Assembly: GCA_003971905.1 (NCBI GenBank)
Contig: RSEE01000036.1
Location: forward strand, 434,001 to 498,000
Direction: 5' to 3'
DNA from: Moniliella sp. 'wahieum'
Taxonomy: Eukaryota
DNA length: 64,000 nt
Shown piece by piece: positions 40,401 through 60,929 of this stretch; positions within the stretch are counted from its first letter, which is position 1, and every line of letters begins with the position of its first letter. A program made the position numbers and the translations under genes. The notes beneath the pieces were generated by a model. That model did no database searches and was not told where the DNA came from. It saw only the letters and a program-made list of their open reading frames with translations.

Positions 40401-41014
40401 GGGGTGATGGGCAGGGATGGCGCAGAAGGAAAACGAAGGCACGTGGTGGAGGTCGAGTGGGAAAGGCAGGGAGCGACAGAGGCAGATGGATGGCCCCGCG
40501 ACGAACGGCGTGAGGCACCAATGGAAGAGGGGTGGTACACAATCCCTGTTGGGGGTGGGCGACACTGCACTCGTGCTGCTGTCTGGGCGCCACACGCGGC
40601 AAAAACGAGAAGCGGGGCAAAGCGCTGTTTGCGCCGCTTGGGCGTGCGGGACAGGTGGCAGCGTTGGGTGGGTGCCAGTGCGGCCGGACCAGAGCTCCAT
40701 ACGCCTCCGGGACGAGCAGCAACCTCAGCCACTCTGGCCTCTTACATCGTATTGGCCGTAGGCCCCAGGATGCAAAACGACGCCTCGCCGACACTCGCAC
40801 CCACGTCGATGCAAACATGTCACCACCGGCGGCTTTGGAGATGGCTAATAGAAGACGGGGCTGCCATTGAGATCTGTGATGCACTGGTGCCGCTGCGCTT
40901 CCAGTTGCCCTGTCTGCATTGCTATCACTGATGTTCCGTTTCTGTCGCTCGTGTGGACACGATGGATACAAACGAGGTATACGTGGGCTTCAAGCAAAAA
41001 CAGAAGTAAAAATT

Positions 41015-41093
41015 TGGCGCGACGCGGGTTCGAACCGCGGACCTTCTCCGTTCACATGTAAAGGAGACGTGATAACCACTACACCATAGCACC
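41015..41093 (-). tRNA. tRNA-Val(TAC) with apparent 6-nt intron
   Basis: GGTGCTATGGTGTAGTGGTTATCACG TCTCC TT TAC A[TGTGAA]C GGAGA AGGTC CGCGG TTCGAAC CCGCG TCGCGCC A, followed by a T5 terminator. One T.C mismatch in the acceptor stem. Confidence 0.85.
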
Positions 41094-41239
41094 TTGATGT
41101 GAAGTTCATAACCGAAAATGTCACCATTGGATGCATGCGCGCCTTTAGCACGATGTTCTCTGCCGGCCTGAGCCTCCGAAGTGTTATAAAAGTGCTACCA
41201 CCTGCCGAGCCAACAGGTTGCCTTGGATGCGTGCATTCT

Positions 41240-43641
41240 CTACGTCTCCTCCCGCACCAACGCCAGCTCCACAGACACCCCCCACATACACAGCAGATCG
41301 ATCCACCGTCGCTGGTTCTCCCGCAATTGATCCCCGGGGCCCTTGACTTCCACCAGCTTGATGCGCGGTCGAGCCACGCCGTCCTGGGCAGGATGCTGCC
41401 AGACAAGCAGGTCTGGCAGACCGGAACTGCTGATGCTCCAATCCTCGGCAAACGCGCGGCACAAGTGGGCCAGCGCCTCGCCCCCCAAGGCCTCGGCCAC
41501 TTGACCACGTCATCGTGGGAATAGGTGTCCCACTGGCACCCCACCACCGCAGCACTTCGGGGTCGTTCGCGTTCGTCGGTTGTGCTTACCAGTTCGGGCC
41601 CCCGCAGCTCGACCTGCTCCAGCACTGCAGCCAGCATCTCGGACCGCGAACGGGCAAAGTCGGGCGTACGCAAGTCCAATGGCGCGGCCTGGAACGGCAT
41701 CTGTAGCACCCCTGCTACCGGCGCAAACAGTAGATCCCAGAGTAATAGACTTACCACCATCTGGATCAGCCCGCCTTCACAGTGGTAGCCACGATAGCCT
41801 CGGCGAACATAGTGCTGCAGCACCAGTTCCTCCACCCGACATGCCTTTCCATCCAATCCGCGCCAGACTGTGCCCATGGAAAGACGGGTTTGGGTGTGGT
41901 ACGTTTCCGGTTGCTGGTCGGTGAGGGTGCGCTCGAGCCGGACGCGTTTTTGGGGTGGCGGCCGGTCTTCTGGGGTAGAAACAGGTTGGCTCGCGGCCGG
42001 GTCCCAGACCCCACGACTGGTAGGCGCAGCCATGCGGTCCAGTCGAACAGCAGTAAAGTGGACAGGCGTAGCTTCGCGCACCACCAGGTAGGAAAAATCG
42101 TGCTTGTCCCCAAAGGGGATGCGGAGCAGGCTTTCTAACCGTGTCACCCTGCGTTGAAGGGCGGGGAGAACGAGGGGGTGGGTACGCGGGTCCTCGATTG
42201 TCTCGACGCACAGTCGCAGCGCTTTTTCCCGACAAACCTGAATCGCTTTGGACGAGCGAGCGGGATAGGGGCAGGAGGAAAGTGGGTGGGAGCATATTGC
42301 ATCCAGATCAGCGCCAAACGTTCCGCCCATTCCCCGCGTTTGGTCTGTCGAAAATGACGCTGAGAGAGGAGTGCCTGCCACACTTGCGCTTCTTGCTCGT
42401 ACCGCTTCAAGCGGCCGAGACACGCAGCCGCTTTGTACAGCACCCGCGTCTGGACATGAGCCGGGATAAAGCGGGTGTACCATCCCGGCACGGTGGGAAG
42501 TCCCTCGACTGCCTCTACTGTGGCTTTCCAGGTAGGAAGCAAAGCCAACCCCATCTCGGCGCCGCGTTCCCATTCACCCACTTCGAACCGGTAGCTAATC
42601 TCGCGCTCCATCTCCGATGCATGGTGGTAGGCCACCACTTCTTCCCGCGAAGTCCACAGTGGGGTCCGCTCCACAGTATACCCCACAAACTTGGTTCGTC
42701 CACTTCGAGCCAAGATGGCAGTTGTCAGGGCATCTTCGCCTCTCCCGCTCAAGTTAGGACGCGACCACGGCCCCGCGCTGAGAGGTTCGGGCAATTCACG
42801 ATAAAATAGGAGGGCCACCCGGTCAACCAGCTCCCGTACCGAGTCGGGTACCTTGACACTTGGGCCCACTAGCGCGCTCGACTCGCGGGCGCAGATGGCT
42901 GCGAGCCAGAGACGGGGTTGGGCAAGTTGGGGCTGAGGAAGCCAGAGCAGAGAATGTGCTGGTGGGAGATAGGTGTGAAGGTACAGGAGATGCAGTGGGA
43001 GATGCAGTAGGAGATGCCAATTTGGGAGAGGGAGTTGGTGGAGCAACTCGCGGGTTGAAATGGAAAAGTGTGAGCTGACGAGCCTTGGGCTGAGCTTCCT
43101 TGGGTTGGGGGTTGGGGCGTGTGGGGGGTTGGAGCGTGGACGAGCCTTGGCGGGATCGTTCTTTTCGACAAGGGCTTGAATTATGGCCGCCTTGGAAAGA
43201 GAGTTGCTGTTGGGCACCAAGGTGCGCAGGTCATTGAGCGATAGTCGGTTGAGCAACTCGGGCCAATCGAGAGCCGAGCGGGCTGAATGGAAATAAGATT
43301 AGCGAGTGCAAGCAGGCAGCTGCAGCTTGTGGGTCGAGAACATCCTTGTAGGATAATAAGCCGGAAGAAAGCCATCGGTCTTGCGCTGGAGTAGATGAGC
43401 CAGCAGGGCACGAGCAGGACGTGGTACCGCGAGAATGGCTTGCAGTAACTCTATCTCGGATGGAAGAAAGATAAGCCTCATCAGCCAGCACGGTGGAGAC
43501 GATGTCAGACAAGATGGATGAGTAAAAGTTGCCCGAACTGTGGGGGCTGTTGGTGCCGGGGTCGGGAGCGAGGGTGGGCCCAAAGTCGACGCTCTGCTCC
43601 GCCCGTGCTTCCGGCAGCGTTTCGAGTGGGGCGGGAGGCAT
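41240..43641 (-). CDS. FAN1: Fanconi-associated nuclease 1 (VRR-NUC domain)
   Basis: LLSQRHFRQTKRGEWAERLALI; CRVEELVLQHY..GYHCEGG; PFQAAPLDL; SGLPDLLVW..IKLVEVKGPGDQLRENQRRWI (PD-(D/E)xK). Confidence 0.9.
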
Positions 43642-47382: not shown

Positions 47383-49134
47383 GATGGATGCTCCGACGCT
47401 AGCCTCGACGTCCCGGTGCGGAGTGCCTTTTGGCCCCCTCCTATGCATTTACCCAGTTCTCAACCCCCCGCCGCGCTCCTGGGCCATTTGTGGGCCGCCG
47501 TCGCCGTCTGACCTTTACGCAGCGCATTTGGGTCGGAGGCGTCCTGCTCCTCATCAGCTCTCTCTGCGGGAGCCTCGAAGCCCTCGTCGTTCACTACTTT
47601 TACACTGCCCATCGCAGGGTCTTTACCCCCTGCGTCGCGCCTTAGTGCATTCCATCGGTCCCCTCACCATCAGCATTGTCGCCCTGTATGCCAGCTACCT
47701 CAGCTGTGTCCTGAGCGATCCGGGACGAATCGATGCGCGCGGATGGACGCCCCGGTGACTGCCTTCCCCGAGGTGGTCTCGCCCTCAACGCGCTGCCGAG
47801 CACAGATCAAATGCCTCCCCCCGCCGAGACTAGTGTTGACCCAGGCGAGGAGTCGGACACGTCCAACGGGGACAGCTCCGCTTCCCACCCTTTGCCCCAT
47901 TCGATTGCCCTAGCCCAGCGCGTCAGCTCTACCGCCTATTGCGAGAAGGCGGGGCAAGGTGGTGCACGCGCTGTCGCTGGTTCCAGCCTCCGCGTGCGCA
48001 TCACTGTCGTGTGTGCGGGGTGTGCATTGCGCGGATGGATCACCACTGTCCTTGGCTGGGCAATTGTGTTGGTGCGCGCAATTACGGGATTTTCTCCGGT
48101 TCCTGGTGGCGGTGGATGTGTCTGTTGGGGATCTGTATTTATTGACCAAGGTGGCACTTGACGCGTGGCATTCGCCATGGTTCTCCCACCTCCTTTGTCA
48201 TGGGGGTCCTTTTTACCAACATGGCCGTTTCCTCCTTGGTCCTTCTCCTGGTGGGAGGGTTTTCGTTGTACATGTTTACCTCACCATGGTCAATCAAACC
48301 TCGATTGAGTCGGCCGAGACCGGTCGGGCGGCCACCATGGCGCGCCGGGGGCGCATCCCAGCGCCGACGCACAGTACCCTTTCTCGCTGGGCATTGCACC
48401 AATCTGCTCGTCACCCTCGGCTCTCGCCCATGGCTCTGGTTCTTGCCTACCTTGACCACCTACCCAGCTGCATGCCCACCCCGCCCCCGCCCCCACGCCA
48501 TGTACCACATGTCTTGCGTGCTGTTTTGCCCCATACCCAGGAACAAGCTACGTTGGCCGCTGCGGCAACCCAGTCGGGATGGTCCTACCCTACTGCCTTG
48601 GATCCTCTCGCGCAATACCGTTGGCCCCCGCGCGATCCTCTGCGCGTGATGGAGCGACAGTATCGCCGCGAACACTTGGCACGAGAAGCACAAGCTGGAA
48701 ACGTACCCCCATCCCGGCCTGTGCGCTTGGTGCGTTGCCCCCATCGGCCGAAAATGGCCTTACGTCCGATAGCAGCGATGCCGATGAGGATGTCCCCCTT
48801 GCGCAGCTGCACAGGGGGGCGTTTCTCTCCGTCGTCGCAAGCCCGCCACCTCGATCGGTCCAGCGTCGGCACCGGCCCGGCGAACGGCTCAACCTGGCGC
48901 GCCCAAGGTACCCTACCTCACCACGGCATCCTGCACCCTCCTTCTCCGGCCATGGGCCATGTACGAACGCGACGTGGTTCCGAGGGGTTGGAAGTACGTC
49001 CGGTTCACCAGGCCACCCAGCTGGCTACGACGCCGTGGGCCAACTCGGATCCGATGGCAGGCGAACCAGGGCGCGCCAGGGCTCCTCCGCTGCTTCCTTC
49101 CCAGGTGTTGGCGCGGCGCGCCGCCGCAACCTGA
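47383..49134 (+). CDS. DHHC palmitoyltransferase (Pfa-type)
   Basis: YLSCVLSDPGRI; RWCTRCRWFQPPRAHHCRVCGVCIARMDHHCPWLGNCVGARNY; NQTSIE motif; TM segments. Ends approximate. Confidence 0.85.
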
Positions 49135-51140
49135 TGCGCGACATTGACATGATGATGCATGATGGCAAGCTTTCAAGCGAATCAAGGTCGCCAACAAGGG
49201 AAGGCCATTTTTCTAGCTGCCGGCTTTGGTGGTGTGCATGTTCGTGTGCCCTAGTCTGTTAGGATATAGGTACAGTGGTCGTTTGTGCCAGTGGCGCCTC
49301 CTCTGTCTCCTGTCCTCTCGAAGGACGCGTCATGCTTTCGTCGTCGTTGCACTGGCACACGGGGTAGACGCCGATCTGTAGTAGTAGAGTGGGAGTCGGA
49401 TGAGCGGGTGCATGTTTTGTCGGCGCGCGTGCATGACTGATGGTGGATTGCTGACCTACTGTGTGCGGGGACCCCCTTTTCGGGCAACACACCCTTCACC
49501 CAACATGCGTTCATTACTCTCGCCTCGGAGGATTACGCAGATCCTTGTTCGCTGCTGGCTCGGTGGAGAGGAGGGGTTGCTGGGGGGGAGAGGGTGGTGG
49601 GGCAGCTGACATGGTGATAAGGAAGAGAGAGCTGTCATGCAATCATTAAAAGCTGTTGCGCGGCGGATGCATCGTGAATTCCACAACCAGACCGACGTGG
49701 TCACGTGGGCCTAGCCCAGAGCTGGACAGAGGATGGAGGGGATGCGGGTGTGCGTACTCGGCATGCGGCCAGGTGATGATCGGTGGTGCAGCTGACTCTA
49801 CCGAGTTGTGGATTCTGCACCCCAACAAGGGCCAAGGTGGGAAGGAGGACTGATTGGTGGCTGTCGAAGGCGAAGCATCTGGGAGCTTCAAGTTGAAGCT
49901 TGAAGCTTGAAGGCCAGGTTGAAATGTTGAACAAGCCAGAGGCGCGAAGAATGGTGGCGAGGTCCCAATGTCCAGCAGCAGTACCACCGGGTAAGCTAGC
50001 GTCGGGTATTCCCCAGGGCACCTGCACTGCGAGTGGGACCTGTGACCTGTGGCACGTGACTGGCACTACGCCCGCGGCGACACAAATGGCCGAGGGGTAG
50101 CGGGTGTAGCGGTGTACCATGTACACCCAGCTGACTCAAGGGCTGTGCTAGTGGGCATGATGCATATGCATGATGCATGATGCTTGTCCGTGGAATTTGA
50201 AAGGGGCCGCGGCCCCTGGCGACGGCGCAGGGTCAGTGAGTGTGGTGTCGGCTTCAACCCTCAGATCGTCGATCGGCCATCTTGCCTTCCTCGCTGGAAA
50301 GCGGGCACCTGGGACGGTGGACGTGGGTGGTGGACAGTGGGAGAACTGAAGGATGATCGATGATCGATGGTGTGAGGCATGCTATGCACGGTGCGTTATG
50401 TGATGTGTGACGTGTGATGCGTGACGTATGCCGTGGTTTTCAACCAAATGGAAAACAAAAAAAATCCCCGTGCCACACCCCACACGTGCGCATTGCCCCT
50501 TTCAAATTTTGCTGATCACCGGTCATCGGTCACCACTCATCGATCATCAATCATCCAAGCCACCGCCGGGCATCGGCCACCGCTCCAAGACGGCACTCAC
50601 ACGTCACACGTCACGTCACGCGCAATCATAATCACCTAACCTTCTCGTGCTCCGCCATCCGCATCATCGACATCATCCGTAAGCGGAACACACCTTGCGC
50701 TCTCTTCGCGAGTGCATGGCTGCCCGCGCCTGCGCCCTCCTCCCTCGTGCCCTTCCCTTGCCGTCCCGGCTCTTCTCCTGCTGGCTCACGTCACGCGGTC
50801 ACCGAAGGACGCCGCTCCCGCGCTCGCACTCCCGCGGTGCTCCTCGAGGTGGCAGTTGCCGGCGTGTATCCATTCAGTCCGACCCGCGCACTAGTACCCA
50901 CCCAGCCAGACTCAGTTTGTCAGTGCCGGTCACAGGTACAATCGCTCGCGCCCCACACTCGCCACCTGCTGCCCCCGCAATTTTTTCTGCATCTTGCCCG
51001 TGTACCATCCCAGCCGGGCTCTGCTCTCCTTCGCGTCTGCCATGCCGCCACCGCGCCTTCTTAAGCGCCCGCACTGGCCACCCCTACCCGCTCGTTCTGC
51101 CCACCACCTTTCCCCTTCTCCCGCACCCCTCTTGTTCGCC

Positions 51141-54015: not shown

Positions 54016-54827
54016 TCAATCCATTACCAGACCACCGTCAACCACCAAGTTTTGGCCCGTCACGCCCCGAGACCAGGGGTGAGCGAAAAAGAGGCAGGCG
54101 TCGGCCATTTCCTCTGGCGTCGTCACCTGGCCCAGGGGCTGCTGGCTGCAATGGCATCAAACACAGCTGCGGGGGTAGCTGAGGAGGCATCGGTAGTACG
54201 AAGCAAGCCGCCACTGACCATGTTGACGGTGATGTGGTCTGGGCCCAGGTCCTTGGCCATGGTACGTGTCAGGGCAAGCAACGCGCCCTTGGCCAGGACA
54301 TAGTCGTGGTACGGTACGACCGGGTTTTGCAGCAGGTTGGTGCCAATGTTGATGATGCGTCCGTACCCGGCTTGTCGCATGCCCGGTAAGGCAGCCTGCA
54401 CCACATTCAGTGCCCCCTGCACCGTTCCGTCCAGTTGCAATTGCACCTGGTCCCACTTCAACTCGTCGATGCGAGGGCGAGCGTCGCCATTGAACGTAAA
54501 GCGGGGCAGAGCACTGTTGACGACCGTTGTGATGGGCCGGCCGAGGTGCTGCTCGACACGAGCAAAGAGTGCCTCCACCTCGTTCTTTTTCGACACGTCG
54601 GCTCGCTGGATTAAAGGCGGACCTGTCTCGCCCGCTTGATGCGCTTGGTGCATCTGTTCATACAAGCCAAAGGCCATTTCACTGTTGTGAGCAAAGTTGA
54701 TCACCACCGTCGCACCCTGAGCCAAGAAGGCCTTGGCAATCGCGCGTCCCAGACCGCGAGAGGAACCGGTGACGAGCACCACTTGCTCTGCCAGTGCAGG
54801 CGAGGTGGAGGGGGCGGGGTGTGTCAT
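54016..54827 (-). CDS. Short-chain dehydrogenase/reductase, bacterial 3-oxoacyl-ACP reductase (FabG)-like; intronless
   Basis: VLVTGSSRGLGRAIA; RIINIGTNLLQNPVVPYHDYVLAKGAL (YxxxK); VNMVSGGLLRTTDAS. After frameshifts it reads VTTPEEMADACLFFA..VTGQNLVVDGGLVMD* (TGA at 54016-54018). Confidence 0.9.
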
Positions 54828-54829
54828 GC

Positions 54830-55057
54830 CTATGAAAGGGAGCAGGGATGATGGTGGTTGCTTCCAGAATATTCGGCAGCTTTTGCACGGCGGTTTTTAA
54901 GGGTGCGGCAATCATTAATCAGCTGTGGCGTGTCCCGGCCGGTTGTGGAAATTGCAGTATTCCGAGCCCTCGGCTTTGGGCACTCGCACGCGCTTATGGG
55001 GCTTGGCTGCCGGGGGCGCGGGTGCGAGTACCTTGTCATCGTAGCACAGGTTGTCCA
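54830..55057 (-). pseudogene. 3' part of disrupted gag with CX2HX4HX4C zinc knuckle
   Basis: (L)DNLCYDDKVLAPAPPAAKPHKRVRVPKAEGSEYCNFHNRPGHATAD[7-nt insertion]CRTLKNRRAKAAEYSGSNHHHPCSLS*. Confidence 0.8.
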
Positions 55058-55410
55058 TGTTAGAGGGTACTGCTAGGGTTCTCCTGCACGGCCCTCAATG
55101 GATCGGTGACGCTCGCCTAGCCGAGCGGAAGCGTTCCGCTCGCAGGCCGCGCACGCCCTGCTCGCTCCATCTCCCTTCTCTCTCTCCTTTCTCCTTCCCT
55201 TCAGACGTTGCTTGAAGACTTGTGGCTCACCACTTTGCCTTCACGCCTTGTCTGAAGGTACGCCTCTGCTTCCTTTCTTGACCTGTTGCTCCTCACAATG
55301 AGACGTTGCTTGAAGACTTGTGGCTCACCACTTTGCCTTCACGCCTTGTCTGAAGGCTGCTTTGCAGCTGATCCATAGGATCGCGAGTGCTCTCAAGTCG
55401 CACTCTAGCA
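55058..55410 (+). repeat. 5' LTR (353 bp) with internal 56-bp duplication
   Basis: TG...CA ends with imperfect terminal inverted repeats. 55203-55258 is repeated at 55301-55356. Confidence 0.95.
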
Positions 55411-55414
55411 GGTT

Positions 55415-57808
55415 ATGTCGCCCTTATCTTCTGCCTCTGCGCATTCTGCGCACCCGGTTTCCTCGCCTCGCGACATTGTGGAAGCGTATGTTCGTCGTGG
55501 CGAGTTTGACCCCAACTCCCAAGTCGAGATAGCCCCTGGCACGACAGCGAAGTGGCCGGCTTTTCGCATCAAGGGCACGACTTATGCTTGGGCTCAACTG
55601 AGCGTCGTTCTTTCGGACGTTGACGAGGACGTCGCTGCCAAGTTCATCCTGGAAGTCATTCCTACCATTCGCCACTGGGGTATGCCGATGAGTGGCATCG
55701 CCTCCCCGCTCCCTGGTTCTGCAGTGGCAGACAAGGACTCTATTGTGGCTGATATCATTACCGACTACAATAAGGGCCATGGTGGCGAAAACTTCTTGCT
55801 CACACCGACCGACTTCTATGTTGCCTACGTCTTTTATACCAAGTCTCATCGCTTCTCCACTTTTGAGGACTTGCAGAAGGCAATCTTTCGCCATATCAAG
55901 GCAGTGCGTAATGCTTGGAAACTGTACGAGGACAATCAGGCTTCCAAACACCGTGTCGATCTGAAGCGTCGTGCCATGCGTGACATGCTCCTCGACCCAG
56001 CGGACTGTATCAGAGAGCCCCAAGGTGTGGTCGTGTCTGGCCCCAAGGATGTGGATTGCTCTCGTGATTGCACTGGTGGAGAGGGTAAACCTCTGGTTGC
56101 AGCACCACTCGTTGACGAGCCTTTCCCGGCTCGTGGTGCCAGCGAGCCAGCGGAACACCTTGCTTCGCCCGCGTGTGAGCCAGTTGCTGTCGCCCATGAG
56201 CCTCTGGGCAAGATGCCACGCGTTGGTCCTGATTTACTGACGATGCATTCCGCTAGTCCCAAGTCCGGGGCTGAGTTAGCTGCTGTTGGGTATGACCCTG
56301 TTGCAGCAATGGCATCTGTCGGCCCGGACTTACCCCCAGCGGGTGGTGACTATGTGTCACGGGAGGTGCATTCCCCCAGGTCCACGCCAGCTGCTATCGC
56401 CAAGCTGGATCCTGTGGCTGCGATGGCATCTGTCGGCCCGGGCTTACCCCCAGCGGGTGGTGACTATGTGTCACGGGAGGTGCATTCCCCCAGGTCCACG
56501 CCAGCTGCTATCGCCAAGCCGGATCCTGTGGCTGCGATGGCATCTGTCGGCCCGGGCTTACCCCCAGCGGGTGACTATGCGTCACGGGAGGTGCATTCCC
56601 CCAGGTCCATGTCAGTTGCTATCGTGGCTCAGGATCAGACAACCGATCAGGCGCTTGGTGGCCCGGTACCCGTTGCAGTCCCGGCGCCTCGTAAAGGGGG
56701 GCTGATTACGCTCGGTGCCTTTGCACCCGATGAAGGGGAAACAATGGCTGACTTGGCACCCGATCAAGGGGGGCCGGTGGCTGGCCTGGCGCCTGATACA
56801 GTGGGGACGGTGGATGGCATGGCACCTGATCAGGCGCTCGGTGGCCTGGTACCTGTTAAAGTCCAGGCGCCTGGCCAAGGGGGGCCGATGGCGCTTGGTG
56901 CCTCTTCACCCGATGAAGAGGAAACGATGGCTGGCCCGGTACCCGATGAAGGGGGGCCGGTGGTTGGCCTAGCGTCTGACAAAGGGGGGCCGGTGGTTGG
57001 CTTGGCACCCTATCAAGGGGGGTCGGTGGTTGGCCTAGCGTCTGACAAAGGGGGGCCGGTGGATGGCATGGCGTCCGACCAGGCGCTTGGTGGCCCGGTT
57101 CCCATTGACGTCCATCAGGCACCCGACCAAGGGGGGCCGATAGCGTGTGGCACTATTGGCCAGGCGCCCGACAAAGGGGGGCCGACCGCGTGTGGTGCCA
57201 TTGGCCAAGCGCCTGACGAAGGGGGGCCGATAGCGTGTGGTGCTATTGGCCAGGCGCCCGACAAAGGGGGGCCGACCGCGTGTGGTGCCATTGGCCAAGC
57301 GCCTGACGAAGGGGGGCCGATAGCGTGTGGTGCTATTGGCCAGGCGCCCGACAAAGGGGGGCCGATGGCGTGTGGACGTGTCGGCCTGGTGCCTGACCAA
57401 GGGGGACCGATGTCGCGCGCTGCTATTGGCCGAGCGTCCGATCAAGGGGGGCCGATGGCGTGTGGCGGTGTCGACCTGGCGGCTGGACATGGAGAATTAA
57501 CGGTCGCCGAGCTTGCGGACAAGCTTTGCACGGTCGGCCTAGCACCATACGCAGGGAAGGCGATTGCCGCTGTGTCAGAGCTTGCGGCCATCGACGGGAT
57601 GCGGGAAAAAGGGGGGCTGCCCCCGTCCTTCCGCACATGCATTTACGCGCCCGGACCACCTTGCCTTACTGTTCCCTCCCCCACCCACCCTTTTCAGCGA
57701 TACTCACCATGTGTTGGCAGGCCTGCCTGTTCCAAATTGCGTATGGGCACGGTACCGATCCTCAGGCACACATTGTCATGTCGGGAGAGAATATCGATAC
57801 TGACCTGA
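55415..57808 (+). CDS. Element ORF1 (797 aa): ~190-aa unique N-terminal domain plus 38-aa, 11-aa and 15-aa tandem repeats
   Basis: The ATG lies inside the PBS. 114-bp units start at 56294, 56408 and 56522; 33-bp DxGGPVxGLA units span about 56730-57080; 45-bp QAPD(K/E)GGPxACGAIG units span about 57116-57480. No pol motifs recognised. Confidence 0.75.
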   Translation: MSPLSSASAHSAHPVSSPRDIVEAYVRRGEFDPNSQVEIAPGTTAKWPAFRIKGTTYAWAQLSVVLSDVDEDVAAKFILEVIPTIRHWGMPMSGIASPLPGSAVADKDSIVADIITDYNKGHGGENFLLTPTDFYVAYVFYTKSHRFSTFEDLQKAIFRHIKAVRNAWKLYEDNQASKHRVDLKRRAMRDMLLDPADCIREPQGVVVSGPKDVDCSRDCTGGEGKPLVAAPLVDEPFPARGASEPAEHLASPACEPVAVAHEPLGKMPRVGPDLLTMHSASPKSGAELAAVGYDPVAAMASVGPDLPPAGGDYVSREVHSPRSTPAAIAKLDPVAAMASVGPGLPPAGGDYVSREVHSPRSTPAAIAKPDPVAAMASVGPGLPPAGDYASREVHSPRSMSVAIVAQDQTTDQALGGPVPVAVPAPRKGGLITLGAFAPDEGETMADLAPDQGGPVAGLAPDTVGTVDGMAPDQALGGLVPVKVQAPGQGGPMALGASSPDEEETMAGPVPDEGGPVVGLASDKGGPVVGLAPYQGGSVVGLASDKGGPVDGMASDQALGGPVPIDVHQAPDQGGPIACGTIGQAPDKGGPTACGAIGQAPDEGGPIACGAIGQAPDKGGPTACGAIGQAPDEGGPIACGAIGQAPDKGGPMACGRVGLVPDQGGPMSRAAIGRASDQGGPMACGGVDLAAGHGELTVAELADKLCTVGLAPYAGKAIAAVSELAAIDGMREKGGLPPSFRTCIYAPGPPCLTVPSPTHPFQRYSPCVGRPACSKLRMGTVPILRHTLSCRERISILT

Positions 57809-58665
57809 GGTCCCAAGGCCGGGGCCCACCGACGCAAGCCACCCTAGCTGCCCTTCTTACTTGGTTAGCTAGGGAGGTAATGTGCGGACTCGTTGGCCCT
57901 CTTGTGTGCTCTGCTTTAACGTCTCGCTCTCCCATTGCATCCAACATGATGGGCGGTTCTGACGGTTTCCTATCTGACCCGGGCGGGTGGTATTTTGATC
58001 GTTCCAAGACCACAGGCACCGTTTACGATTGGGGCTACACGGGCGGCTGTGGCAGTTTCTTACATGACTCGGACCAGTGGTACTTTGACCGATCCATGAT
58101 GGGGGACACCGTTTATGTTTTGGGCTACACGGGCAGCGGTGGCACTTTCCTATCTGACCTGGGCGGGGGGTCCTTTGATCGTCCCAAGACAAGTGCTGCT
58201 GTTGACAGTTTCGGTTACACTACTCGATGTGGTAGTTTCCTACTTGACCCGGGCGGGGGGTACTTTGACCGTCTCAAGAGCAGTGGTGCGGTTGACGGTT
58301 TAGGTTACGCTAATGGTTGTAGCCGTTTCCTGTCTGACCCGGGCGGGGGGTACTTTGACCGTCTCAAGAGCAGTGGTGCTGTTGACGGTTTAGGCTACAC
58401 TAATGGTTGTGGCCGTTTCCTACCTGACCCGGGCGCGGGGTACCTTGACCGTTCCAAGATTGGCGGTGCTGTTAACTATGTGGGCTGCATGGGCGGCTAT
58501 GGTTTCCTTTCTGGCCCAAATGGGAGTTTCTTTGGCTGTCTCAAGACGGGAGGCACTGTCTCTAGTGTACGCTACATGGGCAGCCGTTGCACTTTCATCC
58601 CTGACCCGGGCCCGGAAGACTTTGGTCGCTCCTTTGCCAGCGGTGCTGCTTGCGAAGTGTACTGA
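57460..58665 (+). CDS. Element ORF2 (-1 frame relative to ORF1): hydrophobic segment plus about eight 30-aa Gly/aromatic repeats
   Basis: Unit FLSDPGGGYFDRLKSSGAVDGLGYxNGCGR repeats about 8 times at about 57967-58660 with a 90-bp period, and the frame is preserved despite divergence. Confidence 0.7.
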   Translation: MWRCRPGGWTWRINGRRACGQALHGRPSTIRREGDCRCVRACGHRRDAGKRGAAPVLPHMHLRARTTLPYCSLPHPPFSAILTMCWQACLFQIAYGHGTDPQAHIVMSGENIDTDLRSQGRGPPTQATLAALLTWLAREVMCGLVGPLVCSALTSRSPIASNMMGGSDGFLSDPGGWYFDRSKTTGTVYDWGYTGGCGSFLHDSDQWYFDRSMMGDTVYVLGYTGSGGTFLSDLGGGSFDRPKTSAAVDSFGYTTRCGSFLLDPGGGYFDRLKSSGAVDGLGYANGCSRFLSDPGGGYFDRLKSSGAVDGLGYTNGCGRFLPDPGAGYLDRSKIGGAVNYVGCMGGYGFLSGPNGSFFGCLKTGGTVSSVRYMGSRCTFIPDPGPEDFGRSFASGAACEVY

Positions 58666-58799
58666 TCACCTACAAGGTACTTTCGAACCATCGTTGACGC
58701 TGGTCCTCGTGACGGTTGGACCAGTCGTCATCCTTTTTCTGTCCTGAATTTGGTCCTTTTCTCCTTTTCATGGCTGTGCCAAATTTGACTTGTTGGTTT

Positions 58800-59175
58800 C
58801 TTTTCAAGTTGAATTGCCTTCTATGGTTCTACTCGACTCGACCTCCAACTCTACGTTTTTACTGTTCGACTTTGGCTTCGGTTCGACTTGGCATATGTTG
58901 TCTATATCTCCAAGTTGCATCGATCTCTATGACTTTCACAGCTTCCTTACCTGCACACGTTCAACATCCTCTTTCGGCTTGGAACATGTTGTTTCTACCT
59001 CCAAGTTGAATCGACCTCTATGATTTCTTACGCTTCCTCCCTCATCCGTTGAACATCCTGTTTCGACTTGGAACATGTTGTTTATACTTCCAAGTTGAAT
59101 TGACCTCTGTGACTTTCTACGCTTCCTCCTTACCTCCATGCGTTGAATATACTGTTTCTCTTCCCTTGACTTGGC
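58800..59175 (+). repeat. Non-coding ~90-bp degenerate tandem repeat in the element 3' region
   Basis: The anchor CAAGTTG occurs at 58805, 58911, 59002 and 59091 (spacings 106, 91, 89), within the unit gacttggaacatgttgtttatacttccaagttgaattgacctctgtgac... Confidence 0.8.
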
Positions 59176-59313
59176 AACATCGCTTGCCAATTATGTTTTC
59201 CTTTCACTTTTTGACCAGAGGCGTTGGAGACATCCTTTCTTCTTTCATCCATGCCTTGGCCCTTGGCCGAGGACCACCACCACCTGTGGTCTGGCGAGCT
59301 CACCGAGGGGGGC

Positions 59314-59665
59314 TGTTAGAGGGTACTGCTAGGGTTCTCCTGCACGGCCCTCAATGGATCGGTGACGCTCGCCTAGCCGAGCGGAAGCGTTCCGCTCGCA
59401 GGCCGCGCACGCCCTGCTCGCTCCATCTCCCTTCTCTCTCTCCTTTCTCCTTCCCTTCAGACGTTGCTTGAAGACTTGTGGCTCACCACTTTGCCTTCAC
59501 GCCTTGTCTGAAGGTACGCCTCTGCTTCCTTTCTTGACCTGTTGCTCCTCACAATGAGACGTTGCTTGAAGACTTGTGCTCACCACTTTGCCTTCACGCC
59601 TTGTCTGAAGGCTGCTTTGCAGCTGATCCATAGGATCGCGAGTGCTCTCAAGTCGCACTCTAGCA
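59314..59665 (+). repeat. 3' LTR (352 bp)
   Basis: Identical to the 5' LTR except for one missing G in the second internal repeat copy (gacttgtgct vs gacttgtggct). Confidence 0.95.
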
Positions 59666-60755
59666 GTCCAGGGCCTCCAGCATGAGCGCACCGTTGCGCT
59701 GCTCTTGGGCCAGGCTCGAACGGTTGCCATCGGTCGGTAGGGCTTCTGCTAAGGTAAGCCACGCGAGCGCCTCGAGATCGACCCCTGCCTGCTCGCCCAT
59801 GGACACGAGCCGATCAATGCGCATGGCATACTCCCGGGCCGTCTCACTGGGCGCAGGGCGCAGCGCTTTCATTCGGGAGGTGACTTCTCTCTGGGCACGA
59901 AGCTTGTTCATACCGAACTTGGTGCGTAAATTCTTGTATACACCGGACGCTGTCCCACACGCAACCGAGCGTATGGTGTCAACGTCACACCGAGCCATCA
60001 AGACGCGCGCAAGGCGCGCGTCGAGTGTGCGCTCAGCCGGCGTGCTGGGTCCCTTCACGACCAAGTCTTCTAGTCCGAAGCCGGTAAGGATGCTCCGCAG
60101 GTCCATGTCGAAATCAATCCACTTGACCTTCTTCGCGTCAAATGCAGGGATGCACCCGCTCTTGGCAAGGGTCTTGACCAACTCCTTGTGTTCGTCCGAA
60201 ATGGGGGTGGGAGATGCAGTGGTCTGCCCCGGCTGGCTGATCATGCTTGGACTGCCAACTTCGGTGGGGGTGACGTGGCACCACTCGGACACCAAGGACA
60301 ACTGGTTGGGGAGGCGGTGTGCCAAAACGAACTCGGCGAAAGTGTCAAGGTGATCAATGCTGTGGAGGTTGGCGCGCAACTGGGCTTCGCCCCATTCGGG
60401 GAGTGCGCGCTTGAGATGCACCGCGAAGAGAAGCTCGACTCGGCTCTGGTCCGTGTCGGCGACACTGGGGGTGCGGCGGACAGTGTCCGTATCGGCCTTG
60501 GTAAGCTCAGTGGCTACGTCGGTGGTGGGGGGGTGGGCGGCGATGTGGGCGGCCGGCTCGGGGGCGGCGGCGGCTTCGGGTGTTTGCGGCATGGTGGGTG
60601 GCTTCTTGGGGGTTTTGGTTTGGGGACGGGGAGGGCGTCTGTGGAGGTACCGCCGCGGGTTTCGACCATGCGCTGGTTGTGGTTGGGGAGTGGCTGGGCT
60701 CAGGCGGGCAGGCGAGGTCGGCAGTCTCGCTTCTGCACAGAGATAAGGTGGGCTC
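59666..60755 (-). pseudogene. 5' part of copia-type gag (Retrotran_gag_2/UBN2-like), truncated by the LTR insertion
   Basis: IPAFDAKKVKWIDFDMDLRSILTGFGLEDLV..TASGVYKNLRTKFG..MKALRPAPSETAREYAMRIDRLVSMGEQAG..LAEALP is a copia gag pattern. Confidence 0.8.
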
Positions 60756-60929
60756 AACCTATGAAAGGGAGCAGGGATGATCGATGATGCAGATGGTAGT
60801 TGCATTCCAGAAGAGGAGCCCGTAAGGATTAGGCTCTTTCTGTAGTGGATATGGAGGTAGAACTTGGCAGGTCGAAATTAAAAAGGGTGGGGTTGATTAT
60901 CCCATCGGCTACCGGAGACACTAAAAAGA

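Follow-up and report, generated by a model that had tools for sequence, protein, structure and literature searches.

A young long terminal repeat element in Moniliella sp. 'wahieum': probably a non-autonomous retrotransposon whose interior holds an orphan coding domain, placed as gag would be, and tandem arrays

What does a young long terminal repeat (LTR) element carry in its interior when none of the genes for its own mobility can be recognized there? This question is raised by an element at positions 55058 to 59665 of a 64,000-nucleotide stretch of contig RSEE01000036.1 from Moniliella sp. 'wahieum' (GenBank assembly GCA_003971905.1, positions 434,001 to 498,000 of the forward strand), which is referred to below as the window. 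A first-pass annotation, made by a model from the letters alone, had described the element as a parasite that keeps long repeat-protein open reading frames (ORFs) as its cargo. We consider it likely that the locus is instead a 4,608-bp, recently inserted, non-autonomous LTR retrotransposon with the size of a large retrotransposon derivative (LARD; length criterion, >4 kb), composed of an orphan coding domain at the gag position and of tandem arrays, and mobilized in trans.

The boundaries of the element were determined by a direct-repeat search and BLASTN. The search returned two exact blocks (55058-55322 = 59314-59578 and 55323-55411 = 59578-59666) of 265 and 89 nucleotides (nt), overlapping by one base in the 3' LTR, and they delimit a 5' LTR of 353 bp (55058-55410, plus strand) and a 3' LTR of 352 bp (59314-59665, plus strand), both of which start with TG and end with CA. 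The only difference between the two is one G indel at 55322/55323, without any substitution (BLASTN, 99.7% over 353). A perfect 5-bp target site duplication (TSD), GTCCA, was read on the plus strand next to the 5' LTR (55053-55057) and the 3' LTR (59666-59670), and one base separates the polypurine tract (PPT) GAGGGGGG (59305-59312, plus strand) from the downstream 3' LTR. Thus, the first-pass annotation was right about LTRs of 353 and 352 bp with a one-base difference, about the duplication and about a very recent integration, which is borne out by LTRs identical save for one indel and by the intact TSD; the locus is an LTR retroelement that is very young and structurally intact. Of the primer-binding site (PBS) and PPT that it had also reported, the PPT stands, whereas the former is only a PBS-like sequence at the LTR edge. 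This sequence, GGTTATGTCGCC (55411-55423, plus strand), abuts the 5' LTR at 55411 and includes the complement of the Met anticodon (CAU), and the ATG of the first long ORF, ORF1, falls within it (55415-55417). Its first letters, GGTTATG (55411-55417), match over 7 nt the start of half-tRNA(iMet) PBSs as in Ty5 and copia, and the sequence is a candidate for this type. The sole tRNA gene of the window is a tRNA-Val gene; thus, the window holds no tRNA(iMet) for pairing with GGTTATGTCGCC. An internal duplication of 98 bp was also seen in the 5' LTR, with 56-bp copies at 55203-55258 and 55301-55356, and its counterpart in the 3' LTR lies at 59459-59611.

The insertion site was further examined by removing 55058-59670 in silico, and a 425-codon minus-strand ORF (60805 down to 54918) was restored. 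The 5' part of this interrupted target ORF occupies 59671-60805 on the minus strand and, without the element, continues from 55057 down to 54918. The restored ORF indicates that the element severed its last 45 codons, which fits a very recent event.

Other members of the LTR family were found in a DNA metagenome (run X1) available as contigs (share, 0.07), in which pieces were matched at 85% likeness; this run had no cover over the flanks of the element (54300-55057 and 59682-60500) and over most of its interior. The first record contains an LTR without the 98-bp internal duplication and with 10 other differing letters in 253 aligned. Since GCTTC borders it at each end, with neither a PPT nor a PBS in the adjoining sequence, this record represents a solo LTR at another site. 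With this TSD distinct from GTCCA, the LTR family has integrated at least twice. In addition, the solo LTR without the duplication indicates that the family is polymorphic for it. A third record holds a piece of the N-terminal part of ORF1 (55663-55890) with 10 differences in 228 nt, clustered at one contig end, and a fourth holds a piece of the array in a second long ORF, ORF2 (58278-58429), with 0 differences in 152 nt. The remaining, second record was matched to 59278-59372 and 55400-55460 of the window and shows the PPT region, then a shorter variant LTR (59 + 176 unlike + 11 nt) and, after the PBS, the initial 50 nt of the interior with the start of ORF1. Two tandem elements with a common LTR would be expected to give this order, as would a one-LTR circle, but it could also be a path in the assembly graph.

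For the coding content of the interior, Pfam (E ≤ 0.1) was searched with all 42 stop-to-stop frames of at least 50 codons that the two strands of the element contain. None of the 42 matched a reverse transcriptase, integrase, protease, RNase H or gag family, and all that came back were five scattered matches below threshold, to families unrelated to these. Besides, the whole translations of ORF1 and ORF2 matched nothing relevant in Pfam at E ≤ 1, including no gag family. The earlier statement that the interior lacks recognizable reverse transcriptase, integrase, protease and RNase H therefore holds, and the case that the first-pass annotation had named against its own view, an ordinary decayed gag-pol, found no pol or gag match among the profiles. 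An Rfam search over 54900-59800 (E ≤ 1) returned nothing, so that the element does not carry a small-RNA gene in the manner of Cassandra or Helenus. Among the ORFs of at least 200 amino acids (aa) in the window, 42 of the 44 listed were scanned (all except the antisense ORFs 48579-49262 and 59682-60353), and none encodes a reverse transcriptase or integrase, so that these ORFs include no autonomous partner within the window. With no recognizable pol, the element would have to be mobilized in trans.

We propose that the 5' LTR would drive transcription of the element, that its RNA would be packaged and then reverse transcribed from the PBS and PPT, and that the cDNA would be integrated with a 5-bp stagger. 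Reverse transcriptase, RNase H and integrase would come in trans from an autonomous element not seen here. This partner is possibly of the Ty1/copia type with half-tRNA priming, although the 5-bp TSD is not specific to that type and the PBS match covers 7 nt; the copia family of the first-pass annotation is therefore no more than a possibility. The interior would then consist of four parts: a coding domain of about 200 to 290 codons that starts at the PBS, about 1.2 kb of arrays in frame with it and with a PPT-like core of six G residues, a 0.7-kb array of 90-bp units that is open in one frame by chance, and a non-coding 3' stretch with a further array.

The first of these parts is the N-terminal, non-repeat part of ORF1 (aa 1 to 293; 55415-56293, plus strand), the entire ORF being 797 aa long (55415-57808). 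We scored it using a codon log-likelihood model, for which the training set was nine Pfam-confirmed ORFs of the window, with the five wrong frames of each as the background; in a leave-one-out test, the nine training ORFs scored from −0.054 to 0.241 bits/codon, eight of them at 0.098 or more. Codons 1 to 200 of ORF1 scored 0.284 bits/codon, which is above all 149 open frames of at least 150 codons in the window (maximum, 0.262, for Thg1), and their off-frame score pattern is that of the training genes. Codons 201 to 293 scored 0.108 bits/codon. Furthermore, the non-repeat sequence that follows the LTR is open throughout its 883 nt (294 codons), and none of 2000 dinucleotide shuffles was as open (maximum, 275). 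The amino acid composition of this part is like that of host genes, as against 13% Arg in the overlapping antisense ORF. The latter frame (55427-56233, minus strand; 269 codons) lies in the same codon register as the N-terminal domain, is Arg-rich and scores −0.045; it is a shadow ORF of the kind that real GC-rich genes usually have. Thus, the first 200 or so codons of ORF1 look truly coding and are the one part with good coding support, and only the non-repeat N-terminal 200 to 290 codons of this ORF look gene-like.

Downstream of this domain, direct-repeat analysis revealed five tandem arrays in the interior, and not the four repeat families counted previously. Three of them lie in frame within ORF1 (56294-57520, plus strand): an array of three 114-bp units (56294-56624), a 183/33-bp array (56640-57114) and an array of eight 45/90-bp units (57116-57520). 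A fourth, of eight 90-bp units (57955-58636), lies in ORF2, and a fifth, of three 89- to 91-bp units (58867-59129), lies outside any long ORF in the AT-richer, non-coding 3' interior; all are given for the plus strand. The ORF1 arrays scored 0.117 (114 bp), 0.043 (183/33 bp) and 0.005 (45 bp) bits/codon. The tail of ORF1 with its stop codon (57521-57808, plus strand) had a non-coding score of −0.123 in the ORF1 frame, and all six frames were negative over the 3' end of the interior (58663-59313, about 650 nt). Differences between units fell on first, second and third codon positions as 11/13/9 in the 183-bp units and 40/27/36 in the 33-bp units. Over the 45-bp array, three or more of the six frames are open, and an antisense frame scores higher than that of ORF1. 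The coding status of the repeat part of ORF1 is ambiguous.

ORF2 (57397-58665, plus strand) is open for 422 codons (57397-58662), or 342 aa from its first ATG at 57637, and lies in the −1 frame relative to ORF1, which it overlaps by 409 nt. The presence of a 797-aa ORF and an overlapping ORF of about 400 aa, as described at first, is therefore confirmed. ORF2 is most likely a non-coding accident of a stop-free repeat unit and probably not a gene. Substitutions among six in-frame units of its 90-bp array show no periodicity (131/124/124 by codon position), its codon scores are −0.01 over the entire frame and 0.05 to 0.06 over parts of it, and its consensus unit is free of stops in three of the six frames; when sequences were evolved neutrally from that consensus, the frame stayed open in 11% of 20,000 runs. 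No homologue of ORF2 was found among 5.8 billion proteins (matched lengths, 188 to 599 aa), and its best matches in the PDB were designed propeller repeats (E = 0.007) with no stretch passing. The ESM Atlas gave no usable match to it, with a recognition of 1033 as against 2300 typical of real families, and an AF2 single-sequence model reached a pLDDT of only 33.0. A link to ORF1 was sought in two ways. In the range of 41 to 300 nt, no frame-restoring intron with donor GTRNGY and acceptor CAG or TAG was present. The overlap contains one X XXY YYZ heptamer, CCCTTTT at 57688 (about 0.5 expected by chance, by our own arithmetic), and the 106 nt 3' of it fold no better than shuffled sequences (z = 0.10). 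A frameshift signal joining the two ORFs is thus not supported.

Several observations weigh against the interpretation as a non-autonomous element with a gag-position coding domain and arrays that are no dedicated protein cargo. ORF1 matches no gag or other family, so that its reading as Gag comes from position and analogy only; a phmmer search with aa 1 to 215 against 1.84 billion representatives found no homologue, and an AF2 single-sequence model of the same residues was unusable (pLDDT, 44.8). Only one copy of the element and of its LTR pair is visible in the window (BLASTN), and the pieces in the metagenome need not come from the same species, because they are metagenome contigs matched at 85% likeness. 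In addition, the periods of all arrays within ORFs (114, 183, 33, 45 and 90 bp) are multiples of three, both length changes of units are of 3 bp (114 to 111 and 90 to 87), and the period of 89 to 91 bp occurs only in the array outside the ORFs. The units of the 45-bp array differ in excess at third codon positions (67/58/120), as do, in much smaller numbers, those of the 114-bp array (0/2/4), and the ORF2 frame scores best of the six over its own array, as the ORF1 frame does over the 114-bp and 183/33-bp arrays. The counts for the 45-bp array are not independent, however, because of its 90-bp higher-order repeat.

The lack of homologues was also seen with other searches. ORF1 aa 1 to 290 matched only PilT noise among PDB sequences (E = 0.4), and none of 187 pattern matches in metagenome contigs and of 223 in prokaryote genome contigs was confirmed; the ESM Atlas gave no usable match to the N-terminal part (best, 0.87; recognition, 1936). 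A pattern combining the LTR end and the PBS had 0 matches in metagenome contigs. A shorter 18-mer version of it had two in prokaryote genome contigs, about 17 being expected by our own arithmetic, and these were rejected as chance because both are bacterial records. As a control, Thg1 of the same window found 1,925 relatives, of which the best named are 52 to 55% identical and the best unnamed 80%; the nearest named ones come from Tilletia, Tilletiaria, Jaminaea, Testicularia and others, all Ustilaginomycotina. This indicates that the databases are poor in close relatives and that missing homologues weigh little for a fast-evolving protein of a mobile element.

What, then, is the N-terminal domain of ORF1? 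By analogy with TR-GAG elements, it might be a diverged Gag-like, particle-associated protein made in cis, an identification that we prefer but put forward only tentatively, at somewhat less than even odds. A serious, if rather unlikely, alternative is that it is no retroelement protein but a fragment of a host gene captured by template switching during reverse transcription. The host-like codon usage, which exceeds the maximum of the 149 open frames, is in keeping with such a capture, and so is the fact that ORF1 contains no gag, zinc-knuckle or other retroelement domain (no CCHC motif was seen in its translation). However, no homologue was found in other organisms although the neighboring Thg1 finds many; likewise, no paralogue of the domain was found in the other 59 kb of the window or in public proteins. 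Since even the nearest named Thg1 relatives are so distant, the absent homologues of ORF1 are weak evidence either way. ORF1 begins exactly at the PBS in sense orientation, which is the position of gag, and this argues against capture.

It seems quite improbable, by comparison, that both long ORFs are functional tandem-repeat proteins kept by selection as the cargo of the element. The periods in multiples of three, the 3-bp length changes, the deviating period of the sole array outside the ORFs, the third-position excess in the 45-bp and 114-bp arrays and the best-scoring frames over three of the arrays would all be explained by such proteins. Yet ORF2 has no codon periodicity, a negative score over the whole frame, a frame that stays open in 11% of neutral simulations, and neither homologues, language-model recognition nor a confident fold; the 183-bp and 33-bp units show no third-position excess, the ORF1 arrays score at most 0.117, an antisense frame outscores ORF1 over the 45-bp array, and no canonical intron or supported frameshift joins the two ORFs. 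The claim of long repeat-protein ORFs as cargo is thus largely unsupported, and the arrays are an internal tandem-repeat expansion as known from LTR retrotransposons, with no dedicated protein cargo. The converse possibility, that the whole interior is non-coding as in a classical LARD and that ORF1 looks coding as a relic or by chance, deserves little credence: no frame has homologues, long open frames are common in this GC-rich DNA and a 269-codon antisense ORF overlaps ORF1, but its first 200 codons outscore every other frame of the window with the off-frame pattern of real genes, no shuffle was fully open, and an element with one LTR indel is too young for gene decay since insertion.

We also noted that the arrays share a G-rich motif. 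The plus strand of the element contains 19 runs of six G (G6; 4.1 per kb, with no C6 runs); elsewhere in the window the density of G6 runs is 0.59 per kb. Fifteen of the 19 have the form AAGGGGGGC(C/T)G in one shared codon phase and read K/Q/E-G-G-P; 14 of these 15 are inside the ORF1 arrays (56294-57520), the other being at 57611 in the ORF1 tail, and G6 runs occur in the ORF2 array too. The AAGGGGGGC motifs are the best-conserved core common to the 183-, 33- and 45-bp arrays and resemble the element's own PPT/LTR junction, with which two internal copies have GGGGGGCTG in common. The Gly codons in the AAGGGGGGC motifs are GGG in 30 of 30 cases. In the host genes used for training, by contrast, GGG accounts for 45 of 192 Gly codons, and in the non-repeat part of ORF1 for 2 of 19. 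Besides, columns within G runs are less variable than others (1/48 versus 42/312, p = 0.028; 0/24 versus 18/108, p = 0.043), and no significant constraint was detected at third codon positions alone (p = 0.30 and 0.32). Selection on the G6 motif at the nucleic acid level is only a lead. As a distinctly long shot, the arrays might have a role in cis at the RNA or cDNA level, by priming the plus strand at many internal points or by providing G-rich sites for packaging or dimerization. A parasite without pol could then out-compete its autonomous partner, and in translation the same sequence would give an orphan Gag-like protein a disordered K/Q/E-G-G-P tail.

The DNA of the window has a GC content of 58 to 60% with its 149 open frames of at least 150 codons in 64 kb, and, judging from sequence comparison, the host looks like a GC-rich basidiomycete whose neighbor genes are most like those of Ustilaginomycotina. 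Outside the element, the window ORFs with a clear family (GH63, CENP-T-like, Thg1, LIM, CBS, PB1, GDPD, a NuA4 subunit, a short-chain dehydrogenase [SDR] and mitochondrial ribosomal protein S7) are ordinary fungal genes, and most of the other ORFs match no family. The interrupted target ORF sits between the SDR gene and the gene for mitochondrial ribosomal protein S7. Its codon score of 0.17 to 0.19 is host-like, and it has no Pfam family and no homologue in protein searches; it might represent an orphan gene or, alternatively, an old gag, domesticated or solo. The C terminus of the restored ORF bears a degenerate zinc-knuckle-like sequence, CNFHNRPGH, and ORF1 has no similarity to this ORF. 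Elsewhere in the window, the tRNA-Val(TAC) gene (41015-41093, minus strand) lies inside a 527-aa ORF (40990-42573) that has no Pfam match and scores −0.021; this ORF is probably not a gene.

The locus thus adds a clean, apparently still mobile non-autonomous LTR retrotransposon, which has just disrupted an ORF, from a poorly sampled branch of the basidiomycetes. If its N-terminal domain is Gag-like without detectable similarity to known Gags, the range of gag-only parasites would be widened to fungi, and the domain would provide a probe for the autonomous partner. Should the G6 and PPT-like arrays have a role in cis, this would be one of the rare cases in which the tandem repeats of many LTR elements are explained by a function; arrays in the interiors of such elements are well described, and their origin and function are called unknown (PMC11963269). 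As it stands, the finding opens no long-standing question.

Among known systems, LARDs are the closest in structure. LARDs are a non-autonomous LTR class with an interior described as non-coding, and non-autonomous LTR families are described as a continuum in which some retain ORF remnants and others do not (PMC13570524). The element resembles them in its intact LTR pair, PPT, TSD and PBS-like site, in its length of more than 4 kb and in its lack of reverse transcriptase, integrase, protease and RNase H. Their interior is non-coding, however, whereas here about 200 to 290 codons after the PBS look coding and the remainder is mostly the five arrays; because aa 1 to 200 of ORF1 score gene-like, the element departs from LARDs in this respect. 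With TR-GAG elements it has in common a single sense ORF right after the PBS, the lack of pol and a young mobile copy. Unlike in these, ORF1 has no detectable gag or capsid family or zinc knuckle and is extended by about 500 codons of acidic, Gly/Pro-rich repeats, and membership in TR-GAG cannot be shown because no gag family matches it. The half-tRNA(iMet)-primed Ty1/copia elements (Ty5 and Drosophila copia) are similar in that a PBS-like site with the complement of the CAU anticodon abuts the LTR, and the 5-bp TSD fits them; only the first 7 nt fit their PBSs, however, and here no pol is available for classification. Priming by the anticodon loop of tRNA(iMet) is reported for the Copia superfamily only (PMC10886601 and PMC5371799). 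Plant LTR elements of the Retand/Ogre type likewise carry family-specific short tandem arrays between the coding part and the 3' LTR (PMC11963269). That lineage is mostly autonomous plant Ty3/gypsy with arrays downstream of pol, whereas the present element is fungal and has no pol, most of its arrays are in frame with its sole coding domain, and their units carry a PPT-like G6 motif. The architecture, which the first-pass annotation did not recognize, is therefore that of an unusual-looking member of a known parasitic class with LARD-type structure and size, and what is of most interest in it is the N-terminal domain, orphan and strongly gene-like, which lies where gag would be and has PPT-like G6 arrays fused to it.

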